Shown here: one piece after another, positions 1 through 4,556 of the stretch
How positions within the stretch are numbered: position 1 is the first letter of the stretch
How the letters are laid out: each line of letters begins with the position of its first letter
IMG/VR virus record: IMGVR_UViG_2737471848_000024
Length of the DNA stretch: 5,447 bases
Source of the DNA: a virus
Lineage: Duplodnaviria; Heunggongvirae; Uroviricota; Caudoviricetes
Direction: 5' to 3' (one strand)
Notes under the pieces: model-generated
Database searches by the model: none
What the model was told of the DNA's origin: nothing
Seen by the model: the letters and a program-made list of their open reading frames with translations, nothing else
Translations under genes and position numbers: made by a program

Positions 1-138
1 GAAGTGGAACTGGCCACACTCACGTGGGTGGACTGGTATAACAATCGACGATTGCTGGAAAGGCTGGGCCATACTCCTCCGGCAGAAGCAGAAAAAGCTT
101 ATTATGCTTCCATCGGAAACGATGATCTGGCAGCCTGA
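1..138 (+). mobile_element. 3' end of a transposase ORF (rve/DDE integrase-core C-terminus, IS3-family-like); 5' part lies outside the window
   Basis: Frame 1 is open from the window edge to TGA at 136-138 and translates to EVELATLTWVDWYNNRRLLERLGHTPPAEAEKAYYASIGNDDLAA. The W-x-D-W-Y-N-x-R-R-L ... P-P-x-E-x-E-x-x-Y-Y tail is typical of the C-terminus of IS3-family OrfB transposases. The exact IS and its terminal inverted repeat (expected within about 139-185) could not be identified by eye. Confidence 0.55.
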
Positions 139-185: not shown

Positions 186-374
186 ATGAAAACGTTATTA
201 CCAAACGTTAATACGTCTGAAGGTTGTTTTGAAATTGGTGTCACTATCAGTAACCCTGTATTTACTGAAGATGCCATTAACAAGAGAAAACACGAACGGG
301 AGTTATTAAATAAAATATGCATTCTTTCAATGCTGGCCCGTTTACGTCCGATACAAAAAGGATGCTGGCAATGA
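186..374 (+). CDS. dicB: Cell-division inhibitor DicB (62 aa), prophage-encoded MinC-targeting protein
   Basis: The 62-aa translation MKTLLPNVNTSEGCFEIGVTISNPVFTEDAINKRKHERELLNKICILSMLARLRPIQKGCWQ matches, from memory, E. coli K-12 Qin DicB (also 62 aa, MKTLLPNVNTSEGCFEIGVTISNPVFTEDAINKRK...) with a few substitutions near the C-terminus. Identification rests on recall, not a search. Confidence 0.75.
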   Translation: MKTLLPNVNTSEGCFEIGVTISNPVFTEDAINKRKHERELLNKICILSMLARLRPIQKGCWQ

Positions 375-562
375 ATACAGCATTTGCACTTGTTCTGACA
401 GTTTTTCTTGTTTCCGGAGAGCCAGTTGATATTGCAGTCAGTGTTCACAGGACAATGCAGGAGTGTATGACTGCAGCAACCGAACAGAAAATTCCCGGTA
501 ACTGTTACCCGGTCGATAAAGTTATTCACCAGGATAATATCGAAATCCCGGCAGGTCTTTAA
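371..562 (+). CDS. ydfD: YdfD-like small prophage protein (63 aa) with an N-terminal hydrophobic segment; Qin YdfD is described as a lysis protein
   Basis: ATG at 371 overlaps the dicB stop (ATGA, 371-374) and is preceded by AAGGA at 358-362 with 8-nt spacing. The translation MNTAFALVLTVFLVSGEPVD...NCYPVDKVIHQDNIEIPAGL has a hydrophobic N-terminus and two Cys. Length (63 aa) and position directly after dicB match K-12 ydfD. The ORF track start at 317 has no comparable RBS. Confidence 0.6.
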   Translation: MNTAFALVLTVFLVSGEPVDIAVSVHRTMQECMTAATEQKIPGNCYPVDKVIHQDNIEIPAGL

Positions 563-655: not shown

Positions 656-3127
656 ATGAGTAAAGTCTTTATTTGCGCCGCCATTCCTGACGAACTGGCA
701 ACAAGGGAAGAAGGCGCTGTGGCTGTAGCCACAGCTATTGAAGCTGGCGACGAACGCCGTGCTCGAGCAAAATTTCACTGGCAATTCCTGGAACATTATC
801 CGGCTGCTCAGGACTGCGCTTATAAATTTATTATCTGCGAGGATAAACCTGGCATACCCCGCCCTGCCCTCGATTCATGGGATGCTGAATATATGCAGGA
901 AAACCGCTGGGATGAGGATTCTGCTTCTTTTGTCCCGGTTGAGACTGAATCCGATCTGATGAACGTCACTTTTGACAAGCTGGCCCCTGAAGTACAGAAC
1001 GCTCTCATGGTTAAGTTCGACACATGTGAAAACATCACCGTTGATATGGTTATTAGCGCACAGGAATTGTTGCAGGAAGACATGGCAACATTCAACGGAC
1101 ATATCGTTGAAGCGTTGATGAAAATGCCAGAAGTTAACGCCATGTATCCGGAGCTTAAGCTGCATGCCATCGGGTGGGTTAAGCATAAATGTAAGCCTGG
1201 TGCCAAATGGCCCGAAATTCAGGCAGAGATGCGCATCTGGAAAAAACGTCGCGAAGGTGAACGCAAGGAAACCGGAAAATACACGTCTGTTGTTGATCTC
1301 GCCCGCGCCAGAGTCAATCAACAGCACACTGAAAATTCAACAGGAAAAATCAGCCTGGTCATTGCTGCCATTCATCGCGAATACAAACAGACATGGAAAA
1401 CACTGGATGACGAACTGGCCTACGCTCTCTGGCCTGGTGATGTGGATGCCGGAAACATTGACGGCAGCATCCATCGCTGGGCAAAAAATGAAGTTATCGA
1501 CAACGACCGCGAAGACTGGAAGCGTATCTCGGCATCAATGCGCAAACAGCCTGATGCCCTTCGCTACGACCGCCAGACTATTTTTGGCCTTGTCCGTGAA
1601 CGTCCGATCGACATTCACAAAGACCCTGTGGCACTGAACAAATACATTACTGAATACCTGACTACAAAGGGCGTGTTTGAAGATGAAGGAACAAATCAGA
1701 GCGCAACTGACACTCTCTCGTCGCCAGTACCAGAAACTGATGCAGTGGAAACGGCAATTCCGGACAACGAAAAAACCGAATGCAAAGTGGAAGTCGAACC
1801 ATCTGTAGAGCGTGAGGGGCCGTTCTACTTCCTCTTCACCGACAAGGATGGCGAAAAATACGGTCGCGCAAACAAACTTTCTGGTCTGGATAAGGCACTG
1901 GCTGCCGGGGCTACTGAAATCACGAAAGAAGAATATTTCGCCCGCAAAAACGGTACATACTCAGGTTCACAACAAAATACTGGTGCATCTGACACGACCG
2001 CACAACCAGAGCCGGTAAAAGTTACCGCTGACGAAGTAAACAAAATTATGCAGGCAGCCAATATCAGCCAGCCTGACGCCGATAAGTTGCTTGCTGCCTC
2101 TCGCGGAGAATTTGTTGCAGGGATTAGCGACCCGAATGATCCGAAATGGGTTAAGGGGATCCAGACCCGCGATTCTGTAAACCAGAACCAGCATGAATCG
2201 GAACGGAACTACCAAAAAGCGGAACAAAACAGCCCAAATGCGTTACAAAACGAGCCAGAAACGAAACAGCCTGAACCAGTGGCGCAACAGGAAGTGGAAA
2301 AAGTCTGCACCGCCTGCGGTCAGACCGGCGGCGGCAACTGCCCTGATTGTGGCGCGGTGATGGGCGACGCAACATACCAGGAAACATTCGATGAAGAGTA
2401 TCAGGTTGAAGTTCAGGAAGATGATCCGGAGAAAATGGAAGGCGCTGAACATCCACACAAGGAGAACACTGGCGGCAATCAGCATCACGATAGCGATAAT
2501 GAAACTGGCGAGACGGCAGATCACTCAATTAAGGTGAACGGTCATCAAGAAATCACATCCACCAGCAGGACGTGTGACCATCTAATGATCGACCTTGAAA
2601 CCATGGGAAAAAATCCTGATGCCCCGATCATCTCAATAGGTGCAATATTTTTCGATCCGCAAACCGGAGATATGGGACCGGAATTTAGTAAGACTATCGA
2701 TCTGGAAACTGCTGGCGGAGTCATTGATCGGGACACCATTAAATGGTGGCTTAAGCAATCACGCGAAGCGCAATCTGCCATTATGACCGATGAAATCCAG
2801 TTAGATGATGCACTGTTACAATTGCGGGAATTTATCGACGAAAACTCCGGTGAATTTTTTGTTCAGGTCTGGGGAAATGGAGCCAACTTCGACAACACGA
2901 TTTTGCGCCGTTCATACGAACGGCAGGGGATCCCCTGCCCGTGGCGTTACTACAACGATCGCGATGTACGCACAATCGTTGAGCTGGGGAAAGCCATAGA
3001 CTTCGATGCCAGAACGGCTATTCCATTCGAAGGTGAGCGCCATAATGCACTTGATGACGCCCGTTACCAGGCAAAATACGTTTCAGCTATCTGGCAAAAA
3101 CTGATCCCGAGTCAGGCTGATTTTTAA
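656..3127 (+). CDS. Prophage exonuclease, 823 aa (annotated in enterobacterial prophages as exodeoxyribonuclease VIII-like / YdfE-like), with a C-terminal DEDDh 3'-5' exonuclease domain
   Basis: Long ORF with GAGG 10 nt upstream of the ATG. The C-terminal ~185 aa carries the three DnaQ-like motifs: MIDLETMG (Asp 2591-2593, Glu 2597-2599), WGNGANFD (Asp 2891-2893) and HNALDDARY (His 3041-3043, Asp 3056-3058). The middle ~290 aa are acidic and Gln/Asn/Thr-rich, and contain a DKLLAASRGEFVAGISDPNDPKWVKGIQTRD patch that I recall as shared with RecE-family proteins (uncertain). It occupies the position of ydfE in K-12 Qin. Confidence 0.85.
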   Translation: MSKVFICAAIPDELATREEGAVAVATAIEAGDERRARAKFHWQFLEHYPAAQDCAYKFIICEDKPGIPRPALDSWDAEYMQENRWDEDSASFVPVETESDLMNVTFDKLAPEVQNALMVKFDTCENITVDMVISAQELLQEDMATFNGHIVEALMKMPEVNAMYPELKLHAIGWVKHKCKPGAKWPEIQAEMRIWKKRREGERKETGKYTSVVDLARARVNQQHTENSTGKISLVIAAIHREYKQTWKTLDDELAYALWPGDVDAGNIDGSIHRWAKNEVIDNDREDWKRISASMRKQPDALRYDRQTIFGLVRERPIDIHKDPVALNKYITEYLTTKGVFEDEGTNQSATDTLSSPVPETDAVETAIPDNEKTECKVEVEPSVEREGPFYFLFTDKDGEKYGRANKLSGLDKALAAGATEITKEEYFARKNGTYSGSQQNTGASDTTAQPEPVKVTADEVNKIMQAANISQPDADKLLAASRGEFVAGISDPNDPKWVKGIQTRDSVNQNQHESERNYQKAEQNSPNALQNEPETKQPEPVAQQEVEKVCTACGQTGGGNCPDCGAVMGDATYQETFDEEYQVEVQEDDPEKMEGAEHPHKENTGGNQHHDSDNETGETADHSIKVNGHQEITSTSRTCDHLMIDLETMGKNPDAPIISIGAIFFDPQTGDMGPEFSKTIDLETAGGVIDRDTIKWWLKQSREAQSAIMTDEIQLDDALLQLREFIDENSGEFFVQVWGNGANFDNTILRRSYERQGIPCPWRYYNDRDVRTIVELGKAIDFDARTAIPFEGERHNALDDARYQAKYVSAIWQKLIPSQADF

Positions 3128-3185: not shown

Positions 3186-3389
3186 ATGAGCAGCTTATTT
3201 TTAACCGAAGATGAATTGCTAATATTAACGGGCTGCAAATATGCAAGCCACCAGCGAAAATGGTTAATGGAAAACGGGCTTCCGTTCTATACCAATCGTA
3301 GTGGCAAACCGATTGTCAGCCGGGATCTATTTACCTGCAATAAAACTTTACCACCACGCGAGGTAGAGCCGAATTTTGGTGCGATCTGA
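3186..3389 (+). CDS. Small excisionase-like protein (putative recombination directionality factor), 67 aa
   Basis: Small ORF directly upstream of the integrase; its stop TGA (3387-3389) overlaps the int ATG (3389-3391) by 1 nt, suggesting translational coupling. Size and position are typical of xis in lambdoid int-xis modules. The call is mainly positional; the sequence (MSSLFLTEDELLILTGCKYASHQRKWLMENGLPFY...) resembles DUF4224-type small proteins from memory only. Confidence 0.55.
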   Translation: MSSLFLTEDELLILTGCKYASHQRKWLMENGLPFYTNRSGKPIVSRDLFTCNKTLPPREVEPNFGAI

Positions 3390-4414
3390 TGGGAAGACGA
3401 AGGAAAAATCCTGAACACGAAAAATTACCTCCAAATGTATACCCAAATAAATATAGTTATGTATGGAAACCAACATCCAGAGAATCTGTAACACTAACCG
3501 CCATCAAGGATGGTTTAGCTGCTTTATGGAAAAAGTATGAGGAAACTGTAAATAATCGCGATCGTGCAATGACATTCGGTCGCTTGTGGGAAAAATTCCT
3601 CGCCAGCGCCTGTTACAGTGACCTTAGCCCAAGAACACAAAAAGATTATCTGCAACATCAAAAAAAGTTGCTTGCCGTATTCGGTAAGGTACCAGCGGAT
3701 TCCATAAAACCAGAACACATCCGTCGATACATGGACAAAAGAGGGGAACAGAGCAAAACGCAAGCCAACCATGAAAAAAGCAGTATGTCCCGCGTTTACA
3801 GTTGGGGATATGAGCGAGGGTACGTGAAGGCTAACCCATGTGCAGGTGTAAGTAAATTCAAGGCCAAAAACCGCGAACGATATGTAACCGACAAAGAATA
3901 CCAGGCAGTATTAAGCGTTGCACCTCTTCCTGTTTTTATCGCAATGGAAATTGCCTATCTGTGTGCAGCGAGGGTTTCCGATGTGTTATCGCTGAAATGG
4001 GAGCAGATTGGAAACGACGGGATCTTTATCCAGCAAGGGAAAACAGGGAAAAAACAGATAAAAGCATGGAGTCCACGATTACAGGCGGCGATCGAAAAAG
4101 CAAAACAGTTACCAACATCCGCCTATGTAATCAGCAATCAATACGGCAACCGATATATGTACAAAGGCTTTAACGAAATGTGGGTAGAAGCAAGAAATCG
4201 CGCAGGCAAAATTTCAGGTATTTTAACCGACTTCACCTTTCATGATCTGAAGGCGAAAGGAATTTCAGACTATGAAGGAAGCAGTCGGGATAAGCAACTT
4301 TTCTCTGGTCACAAAACCGAGGGGCAAGTGCTAATCTATGACAGGAAGGTTAAAGTTTCACCGACACTTGATGTCCCGTTACCTGAAAATATTCCAAGAA
4401 AATATTCCAAGTAA
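3389..4414 (+). CDS. int: Lambda-family tyrosine integrase (site-specific recombinase), 341 aa
   Basis: N-terminus MGRRRKNPEHEKLPPNVYPN parallels the lambda Int arm-binding N-terminus MGRRRSHERRDLPPNLYIR. Catalytic region: box I Arg in AARVSDVLSLKW; box II TFHDLKAKG (lambda TFHELRSL); GHKTEGQVLIYDR (lambda GHKSDTMASQYRDDR) with the nucleophilic Tyr. It ends 52 bp before the tRNA 3' end. Confidence 0.9.
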   Translation: MGRRRKNPEHEKLPPNVYPNKYSYVWKPTSRESVTLTAIKDGLAALWKKYEETVNNRDRAMTFGRLWEKFLASACYSDLSPRTQKDYLQHQKKLLAVFGKVPADSIKPEHIRRYMDKRGEQSKTQANHEKSSMSRVYSWGYERGYVKANPCAGVSKFKAKNRERYVTDKEYQAVLSVAPLPVFIAMEIAYLCAARVSDVLSLKWEQIGNDGIFIQQGKTGKKQIKAWSPRLQAAIEKAKQLPTSAYVISNQYGNRYMYKGFNEMWVEARNRAGKISGILTDFTFHDLKAKGISDYEGSSRDKQLFSGHKTEGQVLIYDRKVKVSPTLDVPLPENIPRKYSK

Positions 4415-4421
4415 TTCCAAG
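4386..4421. repeat. Tandem direct repeats: 2 x 13 bp AAAATATTCCAAG plus a third partial copy TAATTCCAAG, spanning the int stop codon
   Basis: Read directly: 4386-4398 and 4399-4411 are identical; 4412-4421 repeats the ATTCCAAG core. The copies are read in different codon phases (NIPR vs KYSK), so the repetition is at the DNA level. Confidence 0.8.
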
Positions 4422-4466
4422 TGTGATTTTTGTCACTGACTTAATGATGTATAAGTGATTGAATTT

Positions 4467-4556
4467 TGGCGGAGAGAGGGGGATTTGAACCCCCGGTGGA
4501 GTTGCCCCCACTCCGGTTTTCGAGACCGGTCCGTTCAGCCGCTCCGGCATCTCTCC
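4467..4556 (-). tRNA. serU: tRNA-Ser (anticodon CGA), 90 nt including CCA, with a long variable arm
   Basis: Reverse complement reads GGAGAGATGCCGGAGCGGCTGAACGGACCGGTCTCGAAAACCGGAGTGGGGGCAACTCCACCGGGGGTTCAAATCCCCCTCTCTCCGCCA. It has a 7-bp acceptor stem, anticodon loop CUCGAAA (anticodon CGA) and a T-arm GGTTCAAATCC. It closely resembles E. coli serU as recalled, and mtfA is adjacent as in K-12. Confidence 0.9.

Follow-up and report, generated by a model that had tools for sequence, protein, structure and literature searches.

RecE of the Rac prophage is among the closest described counterparts of the YdfE-family exonuclease examined here, whose gene lies in a 5,447-nucleotide stretch of prophage DNA (IMG/VR record IMGVR_UViG_2737471848_000024; the whole stretch is called "the window" below). 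RecE joins an N-terminal Exonuc_VIII domain (PF06630) and a long non-catalytic N-terminal and central region to a C-terminal PD-(D/E)XK nuclease domain, and its gene occupies an early-left operon slot near xis-int in a lambdoid (pro)phage, with recT on its 3' side. The N-terminal 560-590 residues of RecE are still of unexplained function (review PMC11611040). A second relative is DexA of phage T4, a 3'-5' DNA exonuclease; a short Escherichia coli homologue of DexA, EcD ('HREX'), is reported to degrade the 5-hydroxymethylcytosine (5hmC) DNA of T4 while leaving unmodified DNA intact, and to make E. coli resistant to T4 (PMC12153337; Nucleic Acids Research, 2025). Finally, ydfABC-dicF-dicB-ydfDE are transcribed together from a promoter resembling lambda pL, which DicA represses, and besides DicF and DicB only YdfD has been characterised in this operon (PMC10448788).

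In this study, we found that the gene is a single ATG-to-stop open reading frame (ORF) of 823 amino acids (positions 656..3127, plus strand), whose product carries a DEDDh exonuclease domain of the DnaQ type behind a scaffold of about 640 residues with a RecE-like centre. For polarity, substrate, timing and role, we infer that it may be a lytic-phase 3'-5' DNA-end exonuclease built on a RecE-like scaffold, a tentative reading to which we would give slightly less than even chances. The gene itself is catalogued, annotated and very common, and represents nothing new in kind.

The DEDDh exonuclease domain and its relatives

Profile searches placed residues 642-813 in the Rv2179c-like family of Pfam (PF16473; model positions 2-177 of 177, E 2.6e-67, 226.4 bits against a cut-off of 27), with RNase_T as a weaker match. 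The first-pass annotation, which was made from the letters alone, had proposed a DnaQ-like DEDDh domain within residues ~630-823 and had named five catalytic residues, all of which were found where it had put them: D646 and E648 in MIDLETMG (Exo I, D-x-E), D746 in GANFDNT (Exo II), and H796 and D801 in RHNALDDA (Exo III, H-x4-D). It had also regarded conservation of the acidic residues as decisive, and all five positions were invariant in a 16-sequence alignment of this protein, fourteen enterobacterial homologues and T4 DexA, in which the equivalents are D7, E9, D119, H186 and D191. Its exclusion of a PD-(D/E)XK nuclease was borne out as well: residues 614-849 of K-12 RecE match PF12684 (DUF3799, PD-(D/E)XK), whereas this protein does not. 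The PHROG 2082 'exonuclease' profile spanned residues 1-823 of 823 (E 0), and an 823-codon ORF with such profile scores cannot be a product of chance. The protein was 100% identical to the copy in NZ_AP042519.

T4 DexA (PDB 8KEL) was the only PDB sequence relative of the domain (E 1.2e-6), and no Rv2179c chain was recovered by PDB sequence search at E 0.01, profile search included. DexA and this protein share the DEDDh fold and all five catalytic residues; on the other hand, their identity is only 27-28%, and extra loops of DexA are missing here. DexA and EcD are also standalone proteins (~190-227 amino acids), whereas the domain studied here sits behind its long scaffold. Rv2179c of Mycobacterium tuberculosis, the founder of PF16473, is described by Pfam as an exoribonuclease, and the match to its family was far above threshold, but its genomic context is unrelated to that of this gene. 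Much closer were standalone DEDDh exonucleases of enterobacterial prophages (180-190 amino acids, such as LLS gp34), which were 58-77% identical to residues 644-823. Phage LLS carries its scaffold-free 190-residue version directly upstream of xis-int, and this protein is likewise uncharacterised. Membership in the DEDDh family suggests a 3'-5' polarity, as opposed to the 5'-3' polarity that goes with the PD-(D/E)XK C-terminus of RecE.

Several further observations concern these relatives. In phage LLS (locus L008, 2593-5564), the operon of the DnaQ-like exonuclease also contains yfdP, yfdQ (DUF2303) and a gene for a putative 5'-nucleotidase, none of which is a known annealase; we take these genes to resemble those of the K-12 prophage CPS-53. 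No retrieved standalone homologue starts with MIDTET, the start of EcD, and the sole IMG/VR match to the published EcD reverse primer (locus L005) contained no exonuclease ORF and was rejected as a chance match. Both this protein (WP_040061768.1) and the corresponding protein of phage 689R5 (URC08875.1) are listed as DexA homologues in Table S3 of PMC12153337; our literature searches found no characterisation of this protein.

A RecE-like scaffold with alternative C-terminal domains

Second, we compared the rest of the protein with YdfE and RecE, as the first-pass annotation had suggested. That annotation had described the K-12 gene as truncated, and so it proved: K-12 ydfE is annotated as a pseudogene that corresponds to residues 1-256 at 96% identity and is interrupted after residue 256 by IS2 (IS2E). 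The gene in the window is therefore the intact, full-length form of YdfE. BLASTP aligned residues 262-625 with RecE residues 278-591 (40% identity overall, E 7e-63); the match was near-identical from about residue 473 and ended at RecE residue 591, where the nuclease domain of RecE begins. The RecE-like part is thus this central stretch, and the suggested placement of residues 1-340 in the exonuclease VIII family did not hold. Residues 1-641 matched no Pfam family even at E 1, whereas the RecE N-terminus matches PF06630 at 6e-98, and the NCBIfam exoVIII model (PRK09709) gave 285 bits against a cut-off of 1269, with only model positions 271-602 matched. The first 260 residues are unrelated to the Exonuc_VIII domain of RecE; PF27430/PF27432 are precomputed on homologues of this region, and the local copy of Pfam gave no match to it.

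A protein from phage vB_EcoS-689R5, which occupies the same serU site, corresponds to RecE residues 50-591 at 58% identity followed by this same kind of DEDDh domain, and is in effect RecE with its nuclease replaced. This 813-residue variant (locus L009, 3132-5573; the same serU/mtfA site in another strain) is RecE-type and highly divergent from our protein over its first ~440 residues, and nearly identical to it from ~439 onward, which points to a recombination breakpoint within the gene.

Within the scaffold, residues 262-345 form a conserved core. A query of residues 262-470 matched 60 of 66 long relatives, mostly within 262-345, and many columns were invariant between residues 289 and 325. 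Residues 385-438, predicted to form a small domain, are absent from K-12 RecE. The linker that follows ends in an acidic tail at the point where the nuclease domain of RecE would begin, and contains a CxxC-x7-CxxC cluster (C551, C554, C562 and C565; window 2306-2350). We rejected this cluster as a conserved zinc ribbon of the family, since it was present only in RecE (C517...) and in one of the 66 long relatives and was absent from the other 65; in a linker that is otherwise acidic and of low complexity, these cysteines may make up a small zinc knuckle particular to this lineage. AlphaFold2 modeling of residues 1-640 from a 31-sequence alignment gave a mean predicted local distance difference test score (pLDDT) of 41.9 and a predicted template modeling score (pTM) of 0.24. 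Moderate confidence was reached only at residues 141-210, 385-438 and about 547-571, and pLDDT was below 50 across most of residues 1-260. This alignment had little depth, since nearly all the homologues recovered were E. coli fragments of 72-98% identity.

When 1.84 billion representatives were searched exhaustively with residues 1-345, only 167 clusters (at 50% identity) were retrieved, of which the 66 long ones were sorted by local phmmer. These scaffold relatives showed two N-terminal types (YdfE-type and RecE-type) and different C-terminal domains: DEDDh in 11 and a RecE-type PD-(D/E)XK domain in 14 of the 66. A third C-terminal domain of ~280 residues, which had no Pfam match above threshold, occurred in 22 of all representative clusters. 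Compared directly with Rad52_Rad22, eight of 20 members gave sub-threshold matches (E 0.017-0.12), and some of the homologues of this domain (E ~3e-38) passed the Rad52_Rad22 threshold of 20.3 bits, with scores of 26.1 and 28.7. Searched against PDB sequences, a profile of the domain found nothing, Foldseek against PDB gave nothing significant, and hhalign comparisons with RecT and ul36 Sak were not significant, the Sak alignment nevertheless falling on the expected motif. Identification of the third domain as a Rad52-like annealase is therefore well supported, although not certain.

The PHROG 2489 profile, which represents the scaffold-Rad52 fusions, matched residues 3-356, and fusion P0251 was 39% identical over residues 3-337 (E 9e-49), so that the N-terminal scaffolds are homologous, whereas the C-terminus consists of the putative Rad52-like domain and a helical tail in place of the nuclease. 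In Pectobacterium phage ZF40, the fusion gp07 (locus L010, 2708-4873) lies between cI and int, the same operon position as that of this gene, and is followed by a Sipho_Gp157 protein; this placement also speaks for the annealase assignment.

The wider search gave three side observations. Members of the third class (P0250, P0251, P0299, P0367 and others) consist of the apparent Rad52-like annealase plus a three-helix tail, and PHROGs names phrog_2489 and phrog_7838, which cover the fusions and the standalone versions, 'exonuclease', which looks like a mis-transferred label. Pseudomonas phage LKA5 (locus L011, 2983-6541) encodes a standalone Rad52-like 'DNA repair protein' near a weak DUF1351 match, an RNase_T-type DEDDh exonuclease and a single-stranded DNA-binding protein, and may represent an annealase grouped with a 3'-5' exonuclease. 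In P0041, P0058, P0125, P0127 and P0207, the YdfE N-terminus is joined directly to the DEDDh domain (214-532 amino acids); either a natural internal deletion or an error of assembly may account for these forms.

Operon context, annealase search and prevalence

E. coli strain OkiPb01684 matches the window at 100% identity. The DNA belongs to a lambdoid prophage that is integrated at tRNA-Ser(cga), adjoining mtfA, and of which it covers the integrase end. It contains, in this order, the end of an IS3-family element, dicB, ydfD, the exonuclease gene, a DUF4224 excisionase-like gene, the integrase gene, the tRNA and mtfA (Table 1). Unlike recE, the exonuclease gene is not followed by recT. The first-pass annotation had noted no recT- or bet-like gene ahead of xis, and several lines of evidence agreed with it. 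Only 58 bases separate the stop codon of the exonuclease from the start of xis, which leaves no room for an annealase gene. No annealase is annotated by RefSeq in 15 kb of prophage upstream, and the complete 46-kb genome of the temperate phage Tritos has no annotated annealase, Gam or other RecBCD inhibitor; among early Tritos proteins lacking annotation, none had a Pfam match to an annealase. RecT, ul36 Sak and three Rad52-like proteins, used as tblastn queries against Tritos, the 15-kb prophage and the window, returned only noise (E above 0.3), and the evidence for the absence of an annealase is strong but incomplete, given that this query set did not contain Redbeta, Erf or Sak4. The adjacent single-strand annealing protein gene by which a two-component recombinase (Red, RecET) is recognised was thus not found at this locus.

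Table 1. Coordinates and supporting evidence of annotated features in the 5,447-nucleotide window
Feature	Position	Strand	Evidence
dicB, 62 aa, inhibitor of cell division; opens the remaining early-left operon segment	186..374	+	Pfam DicB E 2.3e-37; NCBIfam CellDivInhibDicB; RefSeq
ydfD, 63 aa, lysis protein, DUF1482	371..562	+	Pfam DUF1482 E 4.3e-26; RefSeq 'lysis protein YdfD'
YdfE-family exonuclease, full-length, 823 aa	656..3127	+	ORF; PHROG 2082; RefSeq WP_040061768.1, '3'-5' exonuclease'
YdfE-type N-terminal region, residues 1-260, not RecE Exonuc_VIII	656..1435	+	K-12 YdfE 96%; PHROG 5943
Conserved core, residues 262-345, common to nearly all scaffold relatives including RecE	1439..1690	+	BLASTP match to RecE starts here
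Small domain of beta-hairpin and helix (predicted), residues 385-438	1808..1969	+	Best AlphaFold2 segment, pLDDT 74-85; gap in RecE alignment
RecE-like linker, residues 439-640, with Cys cluster and acidic low-complexity tail	1970..2575	+	Near-identical to RecE 460-591
DEDDh (DnaQ-like) 3'-5' exonuclease domain (polarity by family), Rv2179c/DexA type, residues 642-813	2579..3094	+	PF16473; DexA match
Excisionase-like gene, DUF4224, 67 aa	3186..3389	+	Pfam DUF4224 E 1.9e-15; PHROG 1266 'excisionase'
Tyrosine integrase, 341-aa ORF	3389..4414	+	Pfam Phage_integrase; PHROG 1; RefSeq frameshift/pseudogene flag
tRNA-Ser(cga) (serU), prophage attachment site, adjoining mtfA	4467..4556	-	ARAGORN; Rfam tRNA; RefSeq

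In 3,533 of 5,426 complete E. coli genomes (65%), the gene was present at a coverage of 80% or more, in up to ten places per genome. The first-pass annotation had singled out this copy as intact; its ORF is indeed whole, but such an intact copy is not special given this prevalence, and its own prophage is degraded. Viable phages, including Tritos and mEp460, carry the gene too, with DNA 95% identical to this copy; the order in Tritos is cI, ydfABC, DicF, dicB, ydfD, exonuclease, xis and int. Against the Tritos orthologue, the ratio of nonsynonymous to synonymous substitution rates (dN/dS) was 0.30 overall, 0.12 in the conserved core, 0.04 in the 385-438 domain and 0.67 in the linker of residues 346-384. 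The synonymous rate (dS) varied from 0 to 0.6 along the gene, a sign that it is a recombination mosaic. Together, the prevalence of 65% and the overall dN/dS suggest that the gene is maintained by selection.

The degraded state of the source prophage is seen in the insertion sequence (IS) beside dicB and in the frameshift flag on the integrase. The window starts within the IS3-family element, and the ORF at 4..138 encodes the C-terminus of its transposase; its terminal inverted repeat extends to base 180 and leaves only 5 bp before the dicB ATG, so that dicB, ydfD and the exonuclease gene are cut off from DicF and the operon promoter. Beyond the IS in the source genome (locus L001, 13768-15180) lies a partial dicB comprising the N-terminal 105 bp, and the element may mark the join of two prophage segments. 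The integrase is flagged as frameshifted (window 3389-4439), yet its ORF of 341 residues has the length of the phage 689R5 integrase at the same serU site, which is annotated as intact (locus L009, 5835-6860). A consensus scan found no notable promoter-like site between ydfD and xis, with fewer sites than in shuffled sequence, and an internal promoter or terminator isolating the exonuclease gene was rejected on that basis.

Proposed function, alternatives and implications

In the reading that we favor, this is a modular protein encoded in the early-left operon (pL-type, dicBF) of lambdoid phages of the Qin/Rac kind, and its long, partly disordered scaffold (residues 1-640), RecE-like in its centre (262-625), bears the C-terminal DEDDh domain (642-813). 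Two Mg2+ ions would be held by D646, E648, D746 and D801, with H796 as the general base, and nucleotides would be taken off singly from a free 3'-OH end, a polarity opposite to that of RecE and lambda Exo. The substrate is most likely DNA, mainly because sister scaffolds carry a PD-(D/E)XK nuclease or an apparent Rad52-like annealase domain, and also because T4 DexA, the nearest relative of solved structure, is a DNA exonuclease and because the gene occupies the recE slot, directly upstream of xis-int. Since the operon is a single transcript repressed by DicA, the gene should act after derepression; it would be transcribed with dicB and ydfD only once the prophage repressor is lifted, and would act in lytic growth or induction. 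The 3' ends of linear DNA would presumably be trimmed or degraded alongside host functions for recombination and repair, given that no annealase was found in these phages.

Several points weigh against this reading. The Pfam family is named for an exoribonuclease and many RefSeq fragments are labelled '3'-5' exoribonuclease', so that an RNA substrate is possible. A 3'-5' exonuclease destroys the 3' tails used by annealases and RecA, which makes a pro-recombination role not obvious, and no annealase partner was found in Tritos, the prophage or the window. The scaffold that would target the nuclease was poorly modeled, as its mean pLDDT indicates. In addition, the dN/dS values of single segments derive from small numbers of substitutions in a gene that is a mosaic, and YdfE is described as uncharacterised (PMC10448788).

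Among the alternatives, a defence or superinfection-exclusion nuclease of the HREX type, whose DEDDh domain would selectively degrade the hydroxymethylcytosine DNA of incoming T-even phages, is an unlikely explanation, although the best placed of those considered. The reported activity of EcD on T4 provides a precedent (PMC12153337), the list of bacterial DexA homologues in that paper includes this very protein, and DicB, encoded in the same operon, is reported to be protective against some phages (PMC6832061). However, the residues proposed to recognise 5hmC in DexA are not kept, W152 being paired with Y766 and D169 with A780 in an alignment of 27% identity on which these assignments depend. 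DexA D90, which is tetramer-forming and is Ala in EcD, aligned with D718 by both MAFFT and phmmer, which would argue against an EcD-like dimeric state, although a shift of one residue gives A719. EcD is also a different, short protein with its own characteristic start, PADLOC matched the domain by itself only to a generic DEDDh model and had no match to the full-length protein, and the repression of the operon in lysogens argues against a role in defence. Moreover, this explanation does not account for the 640-residue RecE-like scaffold.

The family name that counts against a DNA substrate leads to another explanation, namely a 3'-5' exoribonuclease that would process or degrade host or phage RNA at induction, for example RNase-processed transcripts of its own operon. 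The top Pfam match is titled '3'-5' exoribonuclease Rv2179c-like domain', RefSeq gives many fragments a corresponding name, and the dicBF transcript is heavily processed (PMC10448788). Nevertheless, we regard an RNA substrate as improbable: DexA, the only solved relative found by sequence, is a DNA exonuclease, no structure of Rv2179c appeared at E 0.01, the alternative C-terminal domains of the scaffold appear to be DNA recombination domains, and the position of the gene equals that of recE.

Host-takeover genes are common in lambdoid early-left operons, and the protein could also be an anti-defence or host-takeover factor, in which the nuclease would destroy a nucleic acid or signal of an immune system or the scaffold would block RecBCD or another host nuclease. 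Such a role would suit phages of the Tritos type, which lack Gam or any other annotated RecBCD inhibitor, as well as the N-terminal region, which is a narrow, fast-shuffling family. With no similarity to known anti-defence proteins in Pfam, PHROGs or PADLOC, it seemed to us quite improbable. Finally, that the gene is a functionless relic of a decaying prophage is very hard to believe, as the degraded prophage, the IS 5 bp before dicB, the partial dicB duplicate upstream and the flagged integrase are outweighed by an intact ORF, intact catalytic residues, 95% DNA identity to the gene of viable phages, the overall dN/dS of 0.30 and the wide occurrence of full-length copies.

If the gene encodes a lytic-phase 3'-5' DNA-end exonuclease, as we tentatively propose, an extremely common E. 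coli prophage protein, found in 65% of complete genomes, would be a natural 'polarity-swapped RecE'. Full-length RecE is used in linear-linear recombineering, and recombineering could also benefit from a RecE scaffold fitted with a well-behaved exonuclease of 3'-5' polarity. Our results also bear on the published claim that bacterial DexA homologues act in anti-phage defence: at least this protein and that of phage 689R5 are encoded by lytic-operon genes of lambdoid (pro)phages and carry the domain on a RecE-like scaffold, a point that was not considered in PMC12153337.

More broadly, one scaffold that occurs with three effector domains for DNA recombination or DNA ends, the third of them the apparent annealase, offers a comparative handle on the job of the scaffold. 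It is conceivable, although we think it rather doubtful, that YdfE and RecE belong to one modular phage recombination family, in which a shared scaffold (core ~262-345) would bring swappable effectors to DNA ends, be it a 5'-3' PD-(D/E)XK exonuclease, a 3'-5' DEDDh exonuclease or a Rad52-like annealase. The DEDDh version, which most E. coli strains carry, would then serve lambdoid phages in an annealase-independent pathway of end processing, of opposite polarity and replacing Red/RecET. If this were true, the unexplained N-terminal function of RecE would be the function of this scaffold.

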